Of a stretch of DNA of 16,068 nt, positions 1,997 to 15,245 are shown in pieces. This DNA is from a virus (taxonomy: Duplodnaviria > Heunggongvirae > Uroviricota > Caudoviricetes). The position numbers and the translations under genes are program-made. Position 1 is the first letter of the stretch; every line of letters begins with the position of its first letter. Below the pieces are notes generated by a model. It made no database searches and had not been told where the DNA came from. It saw only the letters and a program-made list of their open reading frames with translations. The stretch lies in the IMG/VR virus record IMGVR_UViG_3300045118_000414. One strand, written 5' to 3'.

Positions 1997-2001
1997 CTTG
2001 T

Positions 2002-3273
2002 ATGGAAACTTTTTATGCTAAGGTATTAGAACAGCTGGACGATTATCGATTCAAGGTCAAGCGTATGAATGCAGTTGAAAGGAGCGAAGCGTCATTAGCT
2101 GAAGTAGCAACAGTACTGTCTATGATGCCAACAGGACGAGGTGCTGGATTTCGTGCTGGTGCTAGTAAATGCGATAATTTATATGCTGTATGTTTTAAAG
2201 ATTCTGCATATATGGTTTTTATCCTGGGGTTTGTTCCAGGTAGTTTTGCGCGAGAAATTACTAGATCTGAACCTGGTGGATTTGTATTAGCTAGTGCAGA
2301 TAATACACATGTTAAAGCATTCGGTGACGGATCATTAAGTTTATATACATCTGAATATTCACAATTAGTATTAGAGCCACGAGCTGAATCGTTATTTGGA
2401 CAATTCAAAAATGTAACCTTTAAATATTGGACAGGCAGTAATAGTATCAGACCTGGTATATACCGATTCTATTATGCCAAGGATCAAGATCTTACCGCAT
2501 TACCTACACACAAAACAGATACTAAGCCAGATAATTTTATAATCGATATTGGTAAATCAGATGAAGCTAAAGGCACTGTTAACTTTTGGATAAAAGAAAA
2601 TTATGATTCAACTGGATCTTCCATATATTCATTAACTGGTACAATAGGCGACAAAAATATTATTGCTTTGTCGTTTGCTGAGACAGATTTAAAAATTACA
2701 TCAGATATTACATGGACAACCGATGGTGCATTATTATATTCTGTAAAAAACACTGACACAAAAAATAATGTTCAGTGGAAGTTTGATGAGAAGTCATTGA
2801 TAAGCACACTGACCTTCAACGATGCTAAAGCTAAAGTTGATCTAATACTGGATTCATCAGTGGACAATCAATTTAGTATTATTGGTAGTGGCGAAGGTGC
2901 AAGTAAGAAATATTCATTAGCAATGGGCACGGGTTCAAGTGCATTAATACTACGTCTAGCCGATGATAAAGTTAAATTAGATATTGCCAGTGATGGTGGT
3001 ATTATATTAGATAATGGTAAATGTGTAATTACTGTTACCGCTAGCGGTGATGTTACGATTAAAGCGGACGGTACAATTAAGATTGGTGGATCCGGTAATG
3101 AACAGCGATTAGTGACGGAAAGTTGGGTCAAGGACGAGTACGCTAAGCATCAACATCAAGCACAAGGCCCGGCATCACCTACAAGTACACCTTTTCCATT
3201 AGATATGAGTATATATTCACCAGGCTCAGACAGCAGTTCAAATCAATTTACAAATACAACGAGGGCAGAATAA
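2002..3273 (+). CDS. Baseplate central spike protein (gpV/gp5/VgrG-like)
   Basis: The N-terminus has an OB-fold-like pattern (AKV...FKVK...G.GF...DNLYAVCF...VFILGFVP). The C-terminus has beta-helix-like repeats (ITVTASGDVTIKADGTIKIG) and ends in HQH followed by a G/P/S/T-rich tail, matching the HxH metal-binding apex of P2 gpV-type spikes. Confidence 0.65.
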   Translation: METFYAKVLEQLDDYRFKVKRMNAVERSEASLAEVATVLSMMPTGRGAGFRAGASKCDNLYAVCFKDSAYMVFILGFVPGSFAREITRSEPGGFVLASADNTHVKAFGDGSLSLYTSEYSQLVLEPRAESLFGQFKNVTFKYWTGSNSIRPGIYRFYYAKDQDLTALPTHKTDTKPDNFIIDIGKSDEAKGTVNFWIKENYDSTGSSIYSLTGTIGDKNIIALSFAETDLKITSDITWTTDGALLYSVKNTDTKNNVQWKFDEKSLISTLTFNDAKAKVDLILDSSVDNQFSIIGSGEGASKKYSLAMGTGSSALILRLADDKVKLDIASDGGIILDNGKCVITVTASGDVTIKADGTIKIGGSGNEQRLVTESWVKDEYAKHQHQAQGPASPTSTPFPLDMSIYSPGSDSSSNQFTNTTRAE

Positions 3274-3524
3274 TGTCATTAAGTGCGAGCGATCTTGTGG
3301 TTAAGATAAAAGCTGAGGTCGACAAGAAAAAACAAAAAATAAAATTACGTGATAATTATACTAATGATGAAATGTTTGAAGCCATTGCAAAAGCTATTAT
3401 TGATTACTTAACAGCCAACACCGTCGTGTCAGTAACAGCTAATATTGGTGAAATCATGGTAGCAGGTAGTCCGTCAGCACAACAAAATGCGGCACCTATT
3501 ACAATAAAAGGAACAATCAGTTAA
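3273..3524 (+). CDS. Small conserved-looking protein coupled to the spike gene (probable baseplate component)
   Basis: 83 aa; TAATG overlap with the spike stop; amphipathic helix AIAKAIIDYL followed by beta segments ending KGTIS. Confidence 0.65.
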   Translation: MSLSASDLVVKIKAEVDKKKQKIKLRDNYTNDEMFEAIAKAIIDYLTANTVVSVTANIGEIMVAGSPSAQQNAAPITIKGTIS

Positions 3525-3529
3525 TACTA

Positions 3530-3558
3530 TTGACATACTCAGATTATTTGAGTAATAT
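3530..3558 (+). promoter_or_regulatory. sigma70-type promoter, leaderless start of the carrier-repeat gene
   Basis: Consensus TTGACA (3530-3535), N17, TAATAT (3553-3558), then 5 nt to the ATG at 3564; no SD. Confidence 0.8.
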
Positions 3559-3563
3559 TACGT

Positions 3564-3881
3564 ATGAATCTAAATAAACTCGGATTTGAAAAGAAAAGAA
3601 CAGATGACTTAATAGCTGGTGGTACCGCAGGTGCCTTGGCTAATTTAGTTGTCGCCCCTATTGATGCAATCGCAGATTCACGTCGCGCTGGTACATTTTT
3701 AGGACATAAACTTATGTCAAAAACTATTCCGGCGCAGATAAAAGAAATGTATTACATAGGTGGCCCCAAAGGATTTTTTTCTGGAGCCGGTGTAAAAATG
3801 CTTAAAGTAGCACCTGCTTCAGCTCTATCATTTGCACTCTATGGAATTACCAAAGACATACTTCAACGAAAAAATAAGTGA
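3564..3881 (+). CDS. Single-repeat mitochondrial carrier (SLC25 / Mito_carr)-like membrane protein
   Basis: DLIAGGTAGALANLVVAPID matches the odd helix pattern xxxAGGxAGxxxxxxxxPx[DE]. GGPKGFFSG matches [DE]GxxGx[FYW][RK]G. MLKVAPASALSFALYGITKDIL matches the even helix pattern xxRxxPxxAxxFxxYExxK. There is only one repeat (about 90 aa). Confidence 0.8.
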   Translation: MNLNKLGFEKKRTDDLIAGGTAGALANLVVAPIDAIADSRRAGTFLGHKLMSKTIPAQIKEMYYIGGPKGFFSGAGVKMLKVAPASALSFALYGITKDILQRKNK

Positions 3882-4572
3882 TCCACAAACACCACTACTG
3901 CCCGCAGTTAGTTTAGGTGCAGCTTACGGTATACCCATGGCTATATTATATCAGTTAGCACGTGGGCGCAATGTAGGATGGAAAGACGCATTAATAGGTG
4001 CGGGTATTGGCGCAGGATCTGCATTAATTGCCAATACGGTAAATCGTAAATATTTTGCAGATGAATGGGATAGATATCGTGAAGGTAAAAAAATGCAAGA
4101 ACTAGGATTTCAAAAGACCGCAAAAGACATGCCGTCATTCACCAGCCAGGATCGTCCTGAAAAGGTAAAAGAAATATATCGTGCATTAAAACGCGAACAC
4201 CCAGAATGGTCTGCTGGTAAAAAGGCACGTATTGCTGAAAGCACATATAATAAAATGGCTGCCGTTAGTCCTAAAGCATTACGACAGGCATTGGATAAAC
4301 GAATTACCACAACAAACGAATTGATTTTAAACGGCAATGTACCATTAACAAAACAATTATTGAAACGTAATATATCACAGGGGTCTAATCTAATACAAAA
4401 GATGACCGCAGAAAAAGCGCCTGCATCTGAAGGAGCTAACGCAATAAGAACGACAGCATTGGCTCCAGCACAATTACAAGATAAACTAAATTATGTAAAT
4501 TATTTTGTTAATCGTTCCAAAGAGGCGCTCAACGAATTAAAAATTATACCTTATATAAAGAAAACAAAATGA
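3832..4572 (+). CDS. Modular hypothetical virion protein: glycine-zipper hairpin, GFQKTA linker, basic helical modules (start uncertain)
   Basis: Open frame of 246 aa with GAAYG...GAGIGAG hydrophobic helices. Possible starts at 3832, 3841 or 3937, plus an internal ATG at 4093 preceded by GAAGG. ATGA overlap with the next gene. Confidence 0.7.
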   Translation: MHSMELPKTYFNEKISDPQTPLLPAVSLGAAYGIPMAILYQLARGRNVGWKDALIGAGIGAGSALIANTVNRKYFADEWDRYREGKKMQELGFQKTAKDMPSFTSQDRPEKVKEIYRALKREHPEWSAGKKARIAESTYNKMAAVSPKALRQALDKRITTTNELILNGNVPLTKQLLKRNISQGSNLIQKMTAEKAPASEGANAIRTTALAPAQLQDKLNYVNYFVNRSKEALNELKIIPYIKKTK

Positions 4573-6299
4573 CAGATCTATTTATTAAACCATTAGAATT
4601 TGAAAAGACTGCATACCTACGAGTAAGTGAAAATCCTACTGAATGGACTAGAGATGTAATGGAACAGTTCTATGTGGCATTTCCTTATTTTATTAATTAT
4701 CCGGTCAGAGTAGAATTCAAACAAAAAGATGAACAAAAAGGATATGCAATTGGTGCAATCATTGTTGAAAATGGTGGAGGTGTCGCAGTGCCCATCGTTA
4801 TTAAAAATCGTGAATTGTATCCATTTGACGTTTGCTTAATTAATGGACAAGTTATACCATTAACTGATTATACAATCAATACATATATTGCAGGTAAAAC
4901 TCCGTTCCTGAAAACGGTGAAACGAGAAACAGGTGATATCACTACATTGTTATTTAGTTCAGGCGGATTGGGATATATGAGAGAGGCACCAATCGAAACC
5001 TACAAAACTGCTGGTGCAGACGAATCATTATTAGATAAAGTATTGCCTTTAACAACAAAGGCCGAACGTGAAAAGATTTTGACAGAAATTGAAAACGAGC
5101 AAGTAACTGAAGGTTATCGTATGAACGGCACAGCGTCGTGTGTAGTTAAGATTGCCAGTGAATCGCACGAAGATGTGGTTCTCGAGAAAACTGCAGCACG
5201 TGTAAATGATTTACTCGACCGTGATATTTGGTACATTTATAAAAATGGTGAGTTTTCATATCATGGTACATTCGGGAATAGTAAGGTTGCCGATACTGCA
5301 ATTACATTTGATAACATGACCGAAGCAGATGTTGCCGCATTTAAAGGACAGCTTATTAAATGTGCGAAAGCCAAAACATTAGAAGCTAAACAGCAATCTA
5401 AGCCTGTAGTAATACTACCAATTAAAAATAGTGACACGTCAATTGTGTTACTTGAAAATGGTGACTATGTTCGTATACCTAATCACATGTATGTAGATGC
5501 ACCGGTAAAAATATCAATGGAACCTCCTGGACAGCCGCCTGAATTACATAAATCCGGTATGTTTAAATACGGAGATGGTACATATAGCGATGTATTAACC
5601 GTAGATCGATTACTTGCTATGCGTGATATACAGTATGTGTATGCAAATAATGGAGCCAAGTTTGCGGTGTATAGTGGTATTGAAAAGACTGCAAATGTTG
5701 ATGGGTGGACATGGGTGCCAGAAAATGCATTTGTTAAGTTAGGTTGTGAACAATGCACAGAAAAGAAAGTAAAAAATATAAAACATCGTGTTATTAAAAC
5801 AGCTACTGAATTATCAATAGATGGTGCAACACCAGTCAACCTACATGATGGCATTTGGACGTTAATTCAGAAAGGTGCACTAGAGGATGATGTAAAAAAA
5901 CTTGGATCGTTACGGGATGGTGAAGCCTTAGAGTTTGAATACGAATTTACTGAACCAGTTTCGTCCATTGAAAAGATAGCATTTGAGTATGACAGTATTG
6001 TTGCAAAAGAATTAAGTGATATCCAAAGAGTATCTCGAAATTATGTTAAAGAAGCAAGCGCTATACCTGATGTACCTACTGTTGATAAAGTGTTAGCACT
6101 AAATTTTGTTAACAAAGATACAATTGCGGTATTTATAGACTCAATCCCGTTATTTGAAAATGCTGTGGCAGCGTTAGCAGAAATGATTATGAAAGCAAGA
6201 ATTGGTGTACAGTTAGTAGATGAAGGCGCATTGCGCAAAGTAATGTTTGGTTTGTTAGATATAATTGAAATATTACGTGGAGTAAAGGGATTAAAATGA
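4569..6299 (+). CDS. Large hypothetical protein with repeated K-T-A/K-x-A motifs; probable virion structural or morphogenesis protein
   Basis: 576 aa, ATGA-coupled at both ends; KTA occurs 5 times, plus KIA twice, KCA and KEA. No enzyme motif recognised. Confidence 0.8.
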   Translation: MTDLFIKPLEFEKTAYLRVSENPTEWTRDVMEQFYVAFPYFINYPVRVEFKQKDEQKGYAIGAIIVENGGGVAVPIVIKNRELYPFDVCLINGQVIPLTDYTINTYIAGKTPFLKTVKRETGDITTLLFSSGGLGYMREAPIETYKTAGADESLLDKVLPLTTKAEREKILTEIENEQVTEGYRMNGTASCVVKIASESHEDVVLEKTAARVNDLLDRDIWYIYKNGEFSYHGTFGNSKVADTAITFDNMTEADVAAFKGQLIKCAKAKTLEAKQQSKPVVILPIKNSDTSIVLLENGDYVRIPNHMYVDAPVKISMEPPGQPPELHKSGMFKYGDGTYSDVLTVDRLLAMRDIQYVYANNGAKFAVYSGIEKTANVDGWTWVPENAFVKLGCEQCTEKKVKNIKHRVIKTATELSIDGATPVNLHDGIWTLIQKGALEDDVKKLGSLRDGEALEFEYEFTEPVSSIEKIAFEYDSIVAKELSDIQRVSRNYVKEASAIPDVPTVDKVLALNFVNKDTIAVFIDSIPLFENAVAALAEMIMKARIGVQLVDEGALRKVMFGLLDIIEILRGVKGLK

Positions 6300-6703
6300 A
6301 CGAAATAGCTAACTTATTTGCAAAAGCAATTAACAAAGTAAGACAATTTCCTCGCACAACTACGGGAATTGCTGGCGGTGCAGTGGGGGCCGTTGGAGGC
6401 AATGTTATCGATGATGGTAATGCACGTGGTACTATTGTGGGCACCGCATTTGGTACTGGAGCAGGCGTGGCATTTGGTGCTAAATTTAATAAAGCAATAA
6501 CACCCTTAGTTAATAAAGTACGTGAAACCGTGCCTTCCATGGCTAATATAGCTTTGTCTGAAAAAGAATTGCGTATGAATCGAATTCAGCATGCGCAAAA
6601 TGCACAGGCACACGATAAACGCTTACTTAATTTAAAGAAACAACAGAAACCAGTAGATTCAGCTATTCCCGGCGTAGAAGGGTTTAGAGTAGTGAAAGGA
6701 TAA
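6296..6703 (+). CDS. Glycine-zipper (GxxxG) two-helix membrane protein with a basic tail
   Basis: GIAGGAVGAVGG and GTIVGTAFGTGAGVAFG; ATGA overlap with the upstream gene. Confidence 0.75.
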   Translation: MNEIANLFAKAINKVRQFPRTTTGIAGGAVGAVGGNVIDDGNARGTIVGTAFGTGAGVAFGAKFNKAITPLVNKVRETVPSMANIALSEKELRMNRIQHAQNAQAHDKRLLNLKKQQKPVDSAIPGVEGFRVVKG

Positions 6704-6706
6704 GTT

Positions 6707-6955
6707 GTGGTAAAACAATCTAGTATAGGTGAATTATTTACACCAGTTGCGAAACACTTAGCAAAAAATCCCAATTTAGCTGGGGGTGCGATTGGTGCAT
6801 TAACTGGTGGAATTTTGGGAGCAAACACATTCAATGACACCCCAATTGCCGGAGTATTAGGTGGTGCAATCATGGGAGGTGCAACGGGTGCATTTATTGC
6901 AACAACCAAGCGTGGTAAACAAACAATGAAGGTTTTATTTGGCAAAGGAAAATAA
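6707..6955 (+). CDS. Glycine-zipper two-helix membrane protein (GTG start)
   Basis: LAGGAIGALTGGILG and IAGVLGGAIMGGATGAFIA; AAGGA upstream of the GTG. Confidence 0.75.
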   Translation: MVKQSSIGELFTPVAKHLAKNPNLAGGAIGALTGGILGANTFNDTPIAGVLGGAIMGGATGAFIATTKRGKQTMKVLFGKGK

Positions 6956-7694
6956 TAACACACTAACTGGTGTAGCATTAGGCACCGGTGGTGGGATAGC
7001 TTATACATATGGACGTTCTAGTCTGCCGAAGGTCAGTAAGCCAGTACATATTTCAGCACTGGAAAAAGAAAAATTTATATCCAAGTTGAAACCTGGCGAC
7101 GTGTTACTAACTGGGGCGTACGACAAGGGTCCATGGGAAAAAGGTTTTGATACATTTCTAAATCGCAATAAACCTGTTTATCATATTGGTGTATATACTG
7201 GCAAGGGGCAATATTCCGAATTTTTATTACGTCATCAACAGCCGGGCGGAGATACAACCAAAAAAGATTTACGACAAGCACTCACTGAAGAAGCACATGA
7301 AGCATGGCGTCCTCACATTACTGATACTGAGCGCAAAAATTTCTTAAAGGGTGTAAATAAACGTTATACTAAGTCTTCATACAGCTCTCCCGCTGCTATA
7401 AAAGCGTATCTAGCGAACTCATTTGGATTAAAAAATATAAAGTGTGAAGGAGATTTTTGCAGTAATGCTCCAGCCAAACATTTACCACAGCGATTATTCA
7501 AAGTCAATAAATCAATTGCTATGCCAAAAGATTTCACCAATCCAAAAAAATTTACATTAGTAGCAGAACTAAAGAAAGTAGAAACACATCTACCAGCATC
7601 AAATAAATCATTATTAAAGTATGTCGTAGCTCCTGCTGTAGCATTAGGTGCATTAGGGTTTGCATTAGATCATGCCAAAAAACGAAAAGAATAA
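6939..7694 (+). CDS. Permuted papain-like NlpC/P60 enzyme (YiiX/YaeF, peptidase C92-like) with hydrophobic terminal helices
   Basis: LKPGDVLL, then YHIGVY (His82), then FCSN (Cys174): His before Cys, as in permuted NlpC/P60 enzymes. TTG start with GAAGG upstream. Confidence 0.75.
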   Translation: MAKENNNTLTGVALGTGGGIAYTYGRSSLPKVSKPVHISALEKEKFISKLKPGDVLLTGAYDKGPWEKGFDTFLNRNKPVYHIGVYTGKGQYSEFLLRHQQPGGDTTKKDLRQALTEEAHEAWRPHITDTERKNFLKGVNKRYTKSSYSSPAAIKAYLANSFGLKNIKCEGDFCSNAPAKHLPQRLFKVNKSIAMPKDFTNPKKFTLVAELKKVETHLPASNKSLLKYVVAPAVALGALGFALDHAKKRKE

Positions 7695-8832
7695 ATATAT
7701 TATTCCCGGATTAGCCGCAGCCGTAGGCGCTGCAACTTATGCTGTAGCACGTAAAGCATGGAATCCTACAGCATTACAACGAGCATCAAAGGGTAAACTT
7801 ACCTGGGTTAGTGACGCAGGCACGCGAAAAATAATGAGCGGTAAAAATCCACTAAGTAGAACATTAAAGAATATATTCTACGGCGACATTGATGTTACAT
7901 CTGTTGATAAGCTCAAGAATGTAAAAAAAGTTGAAGGTGCGTTGTACGCAGACATTGATGTATTAGGCAAAACACCAAATTTACCTAAAGCCGATATTGG
8001 TCTTAATACGGCATCACATATTATTCGTGAGAAATTACAAAACAAAATAGAGTTTTCAAGACTTAAAGATCCAACACACAGTATCGTGCCAGGTCGTGCA
8101 TTTAGTGAAGCAGTTGGTTCGCCTAAATCAAAGGCAAAATTTTTGGAAGCATTCAGTAAGATTCGTAATAAGCATTATATTAAACCTACTGTTGATTATG
8201 CATCCAGACAAGAAGGACATTTTCCGTCATCAGTTATTAGTGAGATTCAAGAGCATTATAAATTAACAGGCGAAGTCCCAAAACAATATCGTAAAGCAGT
8301 CGGACACTTATTTAAGAATCAGTCTAAATATGTTATACAGCCTGAGGTCGATTACGAAAGAATTAGTAGTGGTATGGATAAAGGTAAACCAAGACACGAA
8401 TTTAGAGTTGAGTTTTCTGTACATAAGAATAAAGTTAGTCCGGTTAATATTACCGGACGTAACGCAGATTGGGCTGGTGGGGTAATACCAATAAATAAAT
8501 CTCATGCAGATAAAAAATTTATATCATCAACTATGGGATCATTACAAAGGATAGTAAAAGCTAATCCAAAAGTATTCAAAGAACGCAGTTTCTTGCTTGG
8601 TGCTGATGTCATTAAAGATGTGAAAGGCAAAACACGGATAGTAGAAATAAATGATCAAAGCGGTAATTTAGATCCCGCGATACTAACAGTCAATTATCGT
8701 CCAAATACTGCCCACAATTTGTACAAAAAAGTAACTGGTCGCGATACTAAAGTTACAGCAGGCATTAAAGCAATAGCTACATCTACCGTTGTAGGTAGCA
8801 CTGCACTTATAGAACGTAAAGAAAAAGCCTGA
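7672..8832 (+). CDS. ATP-grasp fold ligase (RimK/TTL-like superfamily) with hydrophobic terminal helices
   Basis: Motifs in canonical ATP-grasp order: QNKIEF, YIKP, YVIQPEV, EFRV, LLGADVI-x-D-x-x-G-x-x-x-IVEIN (Glu325/Asn327). Confidence 0.8.
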   Translation: MPKNEKNKYIIPGLAAAVGAATYAVARKAWNPTALQRASKGKLTWVSDAGTRKIMSGKNPLSRTLKNIFYGDIDVTSVDKLKNVKKVEGALYADIDVLGKTPNLPKADIGLNTASHIIREKLQNKIEFSRLKDPTHSIVPGRAFSEAVGSPKSKAKFLEAFSKIRNKHYIKPTVDYASRQEGHFPSSVISEIQEHYKLTGEVPKQYRKAVGHLFKNQSKYVIQPEVDYERISSGMDKGKPRHEFRVEFSVHKNKVSPVNITGRNADWAGGVIPINKSHADKKFISSTMGSLQRIVKANPKVFKERSFLLGADVIKDVKGKTRIVEINDQSGNLDPAILTVNYRPNTAHNLYKKVTGRDTKVTAGIKAIATSTVVGSTALIERKEKA

Positions 8833-8848
8833 GATTAATCAGGCTTTT
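8823..8848. terminator. Bidirectional intrinsic terminator between convergent genes
   Basis: AAAAGCCTGA-gattaa-TCAGGCTTTT, a 10-bp perfect stem with A and T runs on its flanks; overlaps the ATP-grasp stop codon. Confidence 0.8.
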
Positions 8849-12010: not shown

Positions 12011-12316
12011 CTAATCCTTATAAATTATCGGTTCTTCTTTGTTTGACAGCCTTTTATAAATAGTTACTAAATATATTATTACTGCTATTACAATGGTTAT
12101 ACTAATTATAATAATCCGAATTAGCCAAGGACATAATAAAACAACATACAGAATTAATCCCGCCATGCCTCCATAAACTACAATTGTTACCGTCATTATG
12201 AGTAACGCACCCGCAAATAGCAGCCTCGATTGATATTTTGTAACGGCTGTTTTCTCCAGGTCCGGAAATACACTTTTTGAAATAGCATACTTCCAACTTT
12301 TACGTGATACATTCAT
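12011..12316 (-). CDS. Small two-TM membrane protein
   Basis: Long hydrophobic stretch LLFAGALLIMTVTIVVYGGMAGLILYVVLLCPWLIRIIIISITIVIAVIIYLVTIY; ATGA overlap with the upstream gene. Confidence 0.7.
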   Translation of the reverse strand: MNVSRKSWKYAISKSVFPDLEKTAVTKYQSRLLFAGALLIMTVTIVVYGGMAGLILYVVLLCPWLIRIIIISITIVIAVIIYLVTIYKRLSNKEEPIIYKD

Positions 12317-12678
12317 AAAATTATTTTACTCCCTATACCCAATTTTGATAATATATTTTCTAACATCTTGCTTGTCTCCATTCGTCCCATTAAAAACATC
12401 GGTTCTCCGGTCATAGATATGATCAGTAATGACGGCAGTGCACGTATACCAAGCATCTCAGCTAATTCATAACCAGCATCACTAACATCTACTCCATATA
12501 AATTTAATTTACCAGTATATTTTTGTGAAATATTTTCTAACATATCAACAGTAGATTTCATAAATGAACACGGTATATAAAACAAAATTAACGCCGGCAC
12601 TAATCCTGAAAATCCAGTATTAACACCGGACACATTATAAATTTTTTCGTTAAACTCTTTCACGTTTAGCGATTGCAT
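12313..12678 (-). CDS. Thioredoxin-fold protein lacking the CxxC active site
   Basis: PALILFY...LENISQKYTGKLNLYGVDV...ELAEMLGIRALPSLL...GEP...G follows the Trx pattern including the cis-Pro. The WCGPC site is replaced by FYIPCSFM (single Cys37). SD AAAGGAG. Confidence 0.75.
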   Translation of the reverse strand: MQSLNVKEFNEKIYNVSGVNTGFSGLVPALILFYIPCSFMKSTVDMLENISQKYTGKLNLYGVDVSDAGYELAEMLGIRALPSLLIISMTGEPMFLMGRMETSKMLENILSKLGIGSKIIL

Positions 12679-14238: not shown

Positions 14239-14758
14239 TATATATAGTATAAATACTGGTATTTCTTTGACCGCTGATTTAAGAGAAAAAGGCCGTCAGG
14301 TTTTATTGGTATTAAATACATTATTTAAGGGCCGTGTTATAATAGCTCGAAATACATTTTATAAATTTTCTTCCAGACTTCTTACAAAAGATGAAGCCAC
14401 TAATTATATCGAAAAGCTGTTTCCGGAAAAACTTTTTCAACGGGTAATAAATAAAGATATTTATGCAGTATCTCCGGCAGAGATACTAAAATACTACGAA
14501 GCTTACGATCAAACGTCTTGTTTTGATATTCGTTTTCCAAAAACATCTGCTGAAGCACCCGAGGCTATCGTAGTAATAGAAAAAATAATATTTTATAATG
14601 AATTATACTTAGAATTCAACGCCGCACAAGCGCAGTTTAATCCATTACCATCTACAAACAAATTATACATGTACCCTCCATTAATATTTACTGATAATAC
14701 AGATAGACCGCCTGACGCACCGGTGTCGATAAATTATGACCAAACAAAAACAAACTAA
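14195..14758 (+). CDS. Hypothetical protein (start uncertain, possibly TTG 14267)
   Basis: Open frame of 187 aa between two other + strand genes; the ATG at 14195 would overlap the upstream gene by 44 nt. Confidence 0.65.
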   Translation: MMSTPSLGSPILSGNIYSINTGISLTADLREKGRQVLLVLNTLFKGRVIIARNTFYKFSSRLLTKDEATNYIEKLFPEKLFQRVINKDIYAVSPAEILKYYEAYDQTSCFDIRFPKTSAEAPEAIVVIEKIIFYNELYLEFNAAQAQFNPLPSTNKLYMYPPLIFTDNTDRPPDAPVSINYDQTKTN

Positions 14759-15245
14759 TGGTAACAATGGCTTTCGATTTTCATTGAAGGCTCTCGTAAC
14801 AAATAAAATAAAAAGATTCAGTGACGATATTTCGAAACGTAACGGTAAAAGTAACATCACTGAAGAATGGCTTTACAATCGACTCAAGCAATTATTACTC
14901 CCAGGCAATTTTATAGCCTGCGAGACATGCGGCATGCCAATGACGTGGGATGCCCTGACGATCGATCACAAAGTTCCTCGATCGTACTATAAACGATACC
15001 GTGGTAATATACATAATACTGATAATTTAAATATTATATGCCCGGCTTGTAATAGTTTAAAAGGTCAACGTACCTTACCACAATTTCTAACGGTATTACG
15101 TGCCAGAAATGATGAGATACAAAAAATGGCCGCTCCTTATCGTAACCAACCACAACCTCCTATTATAGCCCCGATGTATCCAGATATCGGATTAGGTCTA
15201 AAAATATTTGGACCAGATAAAGCGCATAAACGATTGAAACAGTAA
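14736..15245 (+). CDS. HNH endonuclease (Zn-binding CxxC...DH...N...CxxCN type)
   Basis: CETCG...TIDHKVPRS...NTDNLNIICPACNSLKG. Confidence 0.9.
   Translation: MTKQKQTNGNNGFRFSLKALVTNKIKRFSDDISKRNGKSNITEEWLYNRLKQLLLPGNFIACETCGMPMTWDALTIDHKVPRSYYKRYRGNIHNTDNLNIICPACNSLKGQRTLPQFLTVLRARNDEIQKMAAPYRNQPQPPIIAPMYPDIGLGLKIFGPDKAHKRLKQ

Follow-up and report, generated by a model that had tools for sequence, protein, structure and literature searches.

Can a single repeat of the mitochondrial carrier (SLC25) family persist as a separate, selected protein, and what could such a protein do for a bacteriophage? This question is raised by a small gene in the 16,068-nucleotide (nt) stretch of DNA analyzed here (the window), which is the minus strand of positions 190,981-207,048 in a 215,016-bp virus record of IMG/VR (IMGVR_UViG_3300045118_000414; CheckV 100%, GC content 37%). 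A first-pass annotation, made from the letters alone, had read this gene as one full carrier repeat encoded on its own, and we have analyzed its product, designated P0001, together with its homologs and its neighborhood.

3564..3881 (+): gene for P0001, a 105-amino-acid (aa) protein made of a single SLC25/Mito_carr repeat, as judged from its PF00153 match, its family and its dN/dS (ratio of nonsynonymous to synonymous substitution rates)

The open reading frame (ORF) of P0001 opens four codons 5' of the ATG and is closed by a TGA at 3879-3881. Residues 13-103 of the protein matched positions 6-95 of the 96-position Pfam model Mito_carr (PF00153) with an E value of 9.3e-14 and a score of 51.4 bits, the gathering cut-off being 22.3, and this was the only significant PF00153 match; the reading of 3564-3881 as a full single repeat was thereby borne out over nearly the whole model. 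A HMMER scan with P0001, which covered 1.84 billion representative proteins, gave 2272 matches at E ≤ 1e-3 that were mostly three-repeat carriers at about 30% identity (the named ones came from a fungus, a plant and a breviate protist), and every match above 40% identity was a short one-repeat protein. A profile of the phage family compared with the PDB retrieved the bovine ADP/ATP carrier (AAC) 1okc at E 4e-19, followed by the yeast and Thermothelomyces AACs, UCP1, UCP2 and a GTP/GDP carrier (GGC1), and in an ESM Atlas feature search with P0001, 100 of the 100 nearest clusters were Mito_carr. Searches of P0001 against PHROG and NCBIfam returned no family match. Because of the Pfam, PDB-profile and Atlas matches, the likeness to carriers was taken as homology, and the possibility of a generic glycine zipper, named in advance as a pitfall, was refuted. 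P0001 is almost certainly a genuine, selected one-repeat SLC25 homolog. It nevertheless falls outside the architectural definition of an SLC25 carrier (three repeats, two gates), though its Mito_carr repeat is bona fide. In full-text literature searches that joined carrier, SLC25 or PF00153 with phage terms, no description of a one-repeat form came up; while the SLC25 repeat itself is known, its occurrence as a one-repeat carrier-type protein in a phage family is new in the literature as searched.

The gene had also been held not to be a broken three-repeat gene, and this stood as well. The ORF that follows P0001 gave no Mito_carr match even at E ≤ 1, and in a six-frame Mito_carr search of the complete 215,016-bp genome P0001 was the sole match. 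One repeat per protein was likewise found in all 15 short relatives described below and in a 587-aa fused relative. Misassembly was checked on contigs from individual sequencing runs: in a 2018 run and in a 2025 lake-water run, both of which are themselves possible sources of this DNA, positions 2000-6300 lay each time on a single contig that differed by one substitution and had no indel. A third run bridged both ends of the P0001 gene. Since the per-run contigs were contiguous and free of indels, it is very unlikely that a frameshift went unseen or that a chimeric join is involved. Near-identical DNA was present in at least 8 lake-water metagenome runs.

The residues of P0001 were then compared with the carrier motifs as defined in a review (PMC7611774), using a column table of the 15-member family alignment. 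The protein is divided into the following parts:

3609..3671 (+): odd-type helix, aa 16-36, with πGπxπG as A18-G19-G20-T21-A22-G23 and P32-x-D34
3672..3785 (+): matrix-type loop, aa 37-74, placed by alignment and ending in G67-x-x-G70-F-F-S-G74
3786..3851 (+): even-type helix, aa 75-96, with K81, A83-P84-x-x-A87 (πxxxπ) and, at its end, Y93-G94-x-x-K97

All residues cited by the first-pass annotation were found at the positions given there, both in the odd helix and loop (A18-G19-G20-T21-A22-G23, P32, D34, A37 and GGPKGFFSG at G66-G74) and in the even helix (K81, P84, F90, Y93, G94 and K97). Invariant in 15/15 members were A18, G19, A22 and G23 of the πGπxπG motif as well as P32, D34, D38, G70, G74, K81, P84, A87 and Y93; A83, which forms the even-helix πxxxπ motif together with A87, was kept in 14/15, and position 97 was basic in 14/15. 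The stretch G67-x-x-G70-F-F-S-G74 is a degenerate form of the [DE]Gxxxx[YWF][KR]G motif, and the loop that it closes is the most basic segment of each protein, with a net charge of +4 in P0001 and of +4 to +8 across the 15 members. K81, which had been proposed to occupy the substrate contact point of even helices, lies three residues before P84 and was set by the profile alignment on the contact-point Arg of 'VIRYFP' in helix 2 of AAC, in keeping with that proposal. Both the packing motifs and the basic contact point expected of SLC25 are thus found in P0001. The gates are a different matter. At position 37, where the base of the matrix network belongs, the family has Ala in 11, Lys in 3 and Gly in 1 of its 15 members; at position 41, that of the glutamine brace, P0001 has Arg and no member (0/15) has Gln; and at position 94, where the acid of the cytoplasmic network belongs, there are 9 Gly, 4 Glu and 2 Lys. 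P0001 consequently lacks the matrix network (Ala37, Arg41) despite P32 and D34 and the cytoplasmic network (Gly94) despite Y93 and K97, so that the earlier view of both gate motifs as half lost (A37 for the base, G94 for the acid) was correct, and both salt-bridge networks were complete in 0/15 members. According to the review, πGπxπG and πxxxπ permit tight packing within and between domains, the flanking π residues pointing to interdomain interfaces, and the matrix network is highly conserved across SLC25 (PMC7611774); the degenerate gate of the phage proteins is therefore a real departure from the family norm.

The control region of the gene and the substitution pattern among its homologs were analyzed as well. 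The consensus promoter that had been noticed upstream is present, and its layout is kept in diverged loci:

3530..3558 (+): sigma-70-type promoter (TTGACA-17 nt-TAATAT) with 5 nt between it and the ATG (from the sequence and a promoter scan)
8823..8848 (no strand): two-way terminator hairpin that closes the operon (from a terminator scan)

The two boxes are TTGACA at 3530 and TAATAT at 3558, and the arrangement TTGAC[AT]-17-TAnnAT-5/6 nt-ATG was kept 5' of the homologs at L002/L003, L004 and L005/L006 (loci listed below) while the surrounding DNA had diverged. This kept layout fixes the start codon and argues that P0001 is the leaderless first gene of an operon, i.e. it implies a leaderless mRNA as far as can be predicted from DNA; no RNA run was among the runs listed as holding this DNA. 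Within the whole genome the strict arrangement TTGAC[AT]-N16-18-TAnnnT-N4-7-ATG was matched 5 times, 4 of the 5 lying at the ATG of an ORF of at least 60 aa (genome 94,259, 188,934, 197,415 and 203,485). From P0001 to the hairpin at 8823-8848 the ORFs abut tightly or overlap. When homologs were compared, their proteins were 47-79% identical and synonymous sites were saturated (proportion of synonymous differences, pS, 0.63-0.86); in the closest and least saturated pair, L002 versus L020, dN/dS was 0.12. The one-repeat family is under purifying selection, a check that had been suggested at the outset and that it passed.

The search for other one-repeat homologs, likewise suggested at the outset, yielded 15 short relatives of 105-144 aa that were 39-56% identical to P0001. 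In profile searches they were separated from eukaryotic fragments by a gap in score, with at least 107 bits for the phage one-repeat proteins and at most 92 bits for the fragments, and the one-repeat family has so far been seen only on large phage-like contigs. No relatives in cultured phages were found for the carrier, nor for the 576-aa and spike-like proteins encoded beside it, and nothing was returned when IMG/VR and GTDB genomes were scanned with patterns from the family alignments, a weak negative given how few peptide patterns were used.

We then asked whether these proteins descend from one particular repeat of a eukaryotic carrier. The phage proteins were placed in a tree with 28 eukaryotic carriers, each cut into its three repeats; they formed one clade (SH-aLRT, the Shimodaira-Hasegawa-like approximate likelihood ratio test, 99) on a stem of 1.37 changes per site, and none of the three attachments (phage with repeat 1, with repeat 2 or with repeat 3) was rejected by approximately unbiased (AU) tests. 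In addition, hidden Markov models (HMMs) of repeat classes 1, 2 and 3 were built from 42 eukaryotic carriers and applied to 41 held-out carriers; of the 123 repeats of these carriers, 113 were assigned to the correct class, the margins being 13-21 bits. On all three models the phage proteins scored 62-66 bits, a level typical of one class scored with the model of another, and their margin between best and second class was 2.0 bits on average and 5.6 at most, with a mixed best class; the eukaryotic sample consisted of best matches to the phage protein, which is a bias in this comparison. As far as these scores go, the phage family behaves as a fourth repeat class, equidistant from repeats 1, 2 and 3. 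This equidistance argues against a recent capture of one modern carrier repeat, and it would be compatible both with an ancient capture followed by symmetrization and with a pre-triplication lineage. Of the two origins offered by the first-pass annotation, a captured eukaryotic gene or a relic of the one-repeat ancestor, the equidistance thus speaks only against a recent capture of one particular repeat and agrees with either ancient route. That the phage family is a surviving lineage, or a sister, of the one-repeat pre-triplication SLC25 ancestor that still works as a symmetric homotrimer appears to us a long shot; if it were true, the carrier fold would already have existed in bacteria or phages by the time that eukaryotes joined three copies in a single chain.

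The genomic surroundings of the family were compared at nine independent loci: the window, L002/L003, L020, L004, L005/L006, L018, L021, L022 and L023. The shared order begins with a gene for 320-420 aa, followed by one to several small variable genes and then by the carrier gene (9/9 loci); after the carrier come a small Gly/Ala-rich helix-pair protein (absent in L004) and a protein of 570-650 aa that is homologous to the product of window ORF 4569-6299 (9/9 loci), and the order ends with glycine-zipper proteins and a protein of 390-860 aa. L018, a 73.6-kb contig, differs in that the repeat forms the N-terminal 120 residues (match at aa 19-119; PF00153 E 8e-12) of a 587-aa protein, P0221, encoded at 6202-7965 (+) in the same syntenic slot. 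The 470-aa extension of P0221 matched nothing else in the cassettes and contains four x-K-T-A motifs, the first of which (EKTA) lies four residues beyond the end of the Pfam repeat match. The idea that P0221 is a fusion of operon genes 1 and 2 was rejected, as it had no HMM or BLAST support. In a distant relative, L019, the gene of the 576-aa family follows a gp5/Phage_base_V spike gene, with no carrier gene between them. A LigD_N (PF13298) protein is encoded inside the cassette at L018:11702-12139 and L022:8824-9357 and has no counterpart in the window.

In the window the carrier gene is flanked by these genes:

2002..3273 (+): 423-aa probable tail central spike, with homologs upstream of the carrier in L002, L004, L005, L020 and L018
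3273..3524 (+): 83-aa ORF of unknown function (phrog_5576) that separates the spike-like gene from the carrier promoter
3832..4572 (+): second operon gene, 246 aa, with a TTG start at 3832 and an in-frame ATG at 3937
4569..6299 (+): 576-aa conserved protein, one to two genes after the carrier and found with it in 9/9 loci, function unknown
6296..6955 (+): two small glycine-zipper membrane proteins of 135 aa and 82 aa, with sub-threshold Gly-zipper matches in Pfam and NCBIfam
6939..7694 (+): 251-aa protein without a family match
7672..8832 (+): last operon gene, 386 aa, with an ATP-grasp-like predicted fold (a lead only)

The 423-aa protein upstream of the carrier is probably the tail central spike, an assignment resting on sequence comparison. 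Its family profile gave a weak match to the 'central spike' chain PDB 8kea_D (E 0.02), and the family has an invariant H383-x-H385 near its C-terminus, which recalls the iron-binding apex of P2 gpV-type spikes. At L020 a 46%-identical homolog of this protein is followed by a gene for CIS_spike_tip (PF19267, E 3e-32; 7542-7970) that ends 31 nt before the carrier gene; it occupies the slot of the 83-aa ORF, which varies among relatives, and is unrelated to that ORF. A Pfam search of this genome detected no spike domain and no PF04717 or PF19267 match, and an HHalign comparison of the spike-like family with a gp5/Phage_base_V protein of a distant relative was not significant.

Downstream, the second-gene product starts with a Gly/Ala-rich hydrophobic helix pair and includes LGFQKTA; counterparts bearing such a hairpin directly follow the carrier in L002, L020, L021, L022 and L023. 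The proposal that degenerate carrier repeats make up the operon's remaining hairpin proteins was rejected, as these gave no Mito_carr signal at E ≤ 1. The 576-aa protein has homologs of 48-64% identity in L002, L004 and L005, and none of about 20 full-length members of its family contains a Pfam domain. Its AlphaFold2 (AF2) model, with a mean predicted local distance difference test (pLDDT) score of 70, had no fold match in the PDB, and in BFVD it matched one uncharacterized Caudovirales protein only; the ESM Atlas gave no match for the protein. An N-terminal LEFEKTAY is kept across this family, K13 and Y16 being invariant. Glycine-zipper proteins also occupy the corresponding slot of L005, L018 and L020. 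For the ORF at 6939-7694, an NlpC/P60 reading was rejected, having no sequence support. The ESM Atlas model of the 386-aa protein aligned with many ATP-grasp clusters at template modeling (TM) scores of 0.51-0.64 over 250-280 residues, and its feature matches were phage clusters resembling RimK or D-Ala-D-Ala ligase; Pfam and PDB sequence searches with this protein gave no match. In L002 and L004, too, the cassette is closed by a homolog of its gene. The operon contained no recognizable lysin, spanin or PHROG lysis family, and features expected of a holin-type system were thus not found.

A short motif recurs in these genes. [EQ]KTA was observed 7 times in the ORFs of the genome against 2.1 expected, with four copies in the two genes after the carrier (at 4102-4113 in LGFQKTA, at 4602-4613 in LEFEKTA, at 5184-5195 in LEKTA and at 5682-5693 in IEKTA) and one copy (EFEKTAG) in a 124-aa ORF at genome 176,987-177,361, beside the major head gene. 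The motif could be a processing or targeting signal, to go by its distribution. The carrier N-terminus itself has the form M-x-L-x-K-L-G-F in 12/15 members (3564-3593 in the window), with LGFEK at aa 6-10 of P0001, and LGFxK occurs inside the second-gene product of the window (LGFQK) and of L022 (LGFTK). The match between LGFEK and LGFQKTA, from which integration into the virion system had been suggested, is therefore literally present and KLGF is common in the carriers (12/15), but the link is weak, as the close homolog of the second gene in L002 has no LGFxK.

The type of phage was evident from the rest of the genome:

genome 154,812-156,455: tail sheath (phrog_279, E 6e-13)
genome 175,141-176,055: major head protein (phrog_2522, E 4e-18)
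genome 181,996-184,656: large terminase (phrog_675, E 6e-53)

The presence of terminase, head and sheath genes identified a contractile-tailed jumbo phage. The carrier operon lies on the same genome strand as these three genes, whereas all 25 copies of a phage-specific motif, GGTATAAGA, lie on the genome + strand, opposite to the operon. The placement of the carrier gene in a structural region, as first proposed, was supported by the adjoining probable central-spike gene but not by the distances, which are 18.5 kb to the terminase and 27 kb to the head gene. As separate observations, the 886-aa large terminase produced its match at aa 511-877, and its aa 138-270 matched a PHROG annotated as thymidylate synthase (E 2e-10), an unusual extension; between the sheath and head genes, genome 160,544-167,038 holds three paralogs of a nucleotide-sugar epimerase gene (phrog_540, E 1e-46 to 1e-57).

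What, then, might P0001 do? We propose, with a probability of about 0.5, that it acts as a weakly gated carrier-like homotrimer in the host membrane and works with the hairpin proteins of its operon. P0001 is very probably an integral membrane protein, and it would insert into the host cytoplasmic (inner) membrane with its basic loop on the cytoplasmic side, as in the carrier topology; this side, the equivalent of the matrix side, is predicted from the positive-inside rule and the net charge of the loop (+4 to +8). On balance we favor the formation of a carrier-like homo-oligomer, because the interdomain packing residues are invariant and, in a protein with one repeat, could only serve as contacts between subunits. 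Self-assembly, most likely into a trimer, would give a perfectly three-fold symmetric six-helix carrier bundle in which three Lys81 side chains line the cavity at the level of the contact points, above a ring of Asp34 and Asp38. Since both gates are kept in no member, a strict alternating-access exchanger is unlikely, and the assembly would more likely be a facilitator or channel with weak gating, open to small, symmetric or phosphate-bearing anions, or a general membrane permeabilizer; solute or ion passage is put forward as a tentative function. During infection the carrier would probably act together with the other membrane-hairpin proteins of the operon. Several points weigh against this proposal: (i) the helices of P0001 are moderately hydrophobic (mean Kyte-Doolittle values of 1.6 and 1.1), with two lysines in helix 2, and autonomous insertion into a bacterial membrane is an assumption; (ii) the single-sequence AF2 model of P0001, at pLDDT 51, was unusable, and the Atlas model had 0.54; (iii) D34 is invariant though its usual partner is Ala, so that it may have another role; (iv) no neighboring gene has a function that names a substrate, and the 576-aa partner matches no solved fold; and (v) the 587-aa P0221 fusion fits a membrane anchor as well as a barrel. 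A three-copy complex prediction of P0001 with a 15-row alignment had a score of 0.21 (mark, 0.42) and counts for neither side.

The degeneration of both transport gates would also suit an open carrier domain, alone or in an open oligomer, whose polar face (K81, D34 and D38) is exposed to lipid and which serves as an adaptor, insertase or scramblase. Such a domain would help the hydrophobic-hairpin proteins of the operon into the membrane, as MTCH2 does after losing one helix; a preprint shows that MTCH2, a descendant of SLC25, turned into an insertase by way of a lipid-accessible hydrophilic groove (PMC12934571). The operon does contain several further small membrane-hairpin or glycine-zipper proteins as possible clients, and the fusion of the P0221 repeat to a 470-aa extension is anchor-like. 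We nonetheless consider this reading unlikely, since the invariant interdomain packing residues suggest helix contacts on both flanks rather than lipid, and the HMM of the hairpin proteins does not match the P0221 extension. The position of the operon, directly after the probable spike and spike-tip genes and on the strand of the sheath, head and terminase genes, with 25/25 copies of GGTATAAGA on the other strand, suggests something else again: a virion-borne ejection protein, packaged or mounted close to the tail tip, that contraction would set free to enter the inner membrane from its periplasmic side, where it would help to open or anchor a conduit for DNA. The shared N-terminal motif of the L-x-F-[EQ]-K type would then be a signal for packaging or processing. 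This fits the excess of [EQ]KTA (7 versus 2.1 expected, with four copies in the pair of genes that follow the carrier and a further one beside the head gene) and the EKTA four residues past the end of the P0221 repeat match, and the three-fold symmetry of a trimer would suit a trimeric spike. A six-helix bundle is, however, too narrow for double-stranded DNA, the carrier itself lacks KTA, the LGFxK likeness is short and not kept in the close L002 homolog of the second gene, no cultured relative was found, and the spike assignment is only probable; on these grounds an ejection protein is improbable.

The carrier hairpin could furthermore be just the scaffold of an ordinary small phage membrane protein (holin-like, depolarizing or superinfection-excluding) in which the cavity is irrelevant. 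It resembles holins and T4 Imm/Sp-type proteins in its length of 105 aa, in having two hydrophobic helices and a C-terminal tail that is basic (QRKNK), and in having its own promoter. This explanation has little to recommend it in view of the invariant residues, which make up the cavity and interface set (K81, D34, P32 and πGπxπG) and are not just hydrophobic, the approximately 65 bits of carrier similarity kept despite saturated synonymous sites, and the finding that neither an endolysin nor a spanin was recognized in the operon. A dead eukaryotic carrier fragment or an assembly chimera without function would come to mind because SLC25 is otherwise eukaryotic and its known bacterial homologs are Legionella effectors. 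We regard it as scarcely conceivable: the gene is under purifying selection, has 15 diverged members, a conserved start and promoter and synteny in nine loci from different samples, is free of indels in per-run contigs, and bears no repeat-class signature of a recent capture; to the extent that sequence evidence reaches, this reading is refuted.

Set beside known systems, the phage protein resembles SLC25 carriers (1okc, the Thermothelomyces AAC 6gci, UCP1/UCP2) in having a repeat of about 100 residues that is homologous over its whole length, with πGπxπG and Px[DE] in its odd helix, GxxGF[YF]xG at the end of its basic, matrix-type loop and, in its even helix, the contact-point base three residues before Pro, πxxxπ and [YF]xxx[KR]. 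It differs from them in having one repeat per chain versus three, Ala for the matrix base, Gly for the cytoplasmic acid and R41 without a glutamine brace; moreover, its gene belongs to a phage of bacteria instead of a eukaryotic nucleus, and no mitochondrion is available to house it. SemiSWEET, as opposed to SWEET, and EmrE-type proteins are small prokaryotic proteins whose oligomers rebuild folds, those of SemiSWEET being experimentally proven. By analogy, a protein of one-third size could oligomerize into a fold that eukaryotes encode as internal repeats, although SemiSWEET has no sequence relationship to the phage carrier, whose oligomer is inferred only. SLC25-type sequences outside eukaryotic genomes are also represented by the mimivirus carrier VMC1 and by LncP and Lpg1137 of Legionella pneumophila, which are full six-helix carriers delivered into the eukaryotic host and plausibly of eukaryotic origin. 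LncP was described as a member of the mitochondrial carrier family that is secreted during infection (PMC3252375), and Lpg1137 as an SLC25 homolog of L. pneumophila (PMC5621508). Unlike these two, the phage family has one repeat and no signature of a donor repeat, and would act in a bacterium. MTCH2 and MTCH1 are carrier-derived proteins that lost part of the six helices and the canonical gates and have a non-transport function (PMC12934571); MTCH2 has five helices per chain and resides in the mitochondrial outer membrane, whereas the phage protein has two helices. CysZ and YihY have been proposed as remote bacterial homologs of AAC on the basis of fold similarity with circular permutation and a short motif (10.64898/2026.03.31.715626). 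Like the phage family, they bear on a prokaryotic ancestry of SLC25, but the phage repeat is recognized directly by Pfam (E 1e-13).

That mitochondrial carriers are built from a repeat that occurs three times within the chain was recognized in 1981 (PMC11670154). With a natural, selected one-repeat protein at hand, the hypothesis of triplication becomes experimentally testable: P0001 offers a handle on whether one repeat can trimerize into a carrier-like barrel, on what a perfectly symmetric carrier binds or conducts, and on which features, such as gates and an asymmetric binding site, had to come after triplication. Even if the protein was captured and cut down, it would demonstrate that one domain is viable as a unit of folding and assembly, and structural studies would gain a minimal scaffold. 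From the viewpoint of phage biology, the operon represents a conserved, uncharacterized membrane operon adjoining tail-spike genes in a clade of freshwater jumbo phages.

That the host belongs to the Bacteroidota is no more than a guess; Por_Secre_tail was found in the relative L002 only, and an insensitive search did not find it in this genome. Elsewhere in the window, a thioredoxin-like protein is encoded at 12313-12678 (-), just below the Pfam threshold (22.5 versus 23.5 bits), and an HNH endonuclease (E 6e-10) is encoded downstream of the cassette at 14736-15245 (+).

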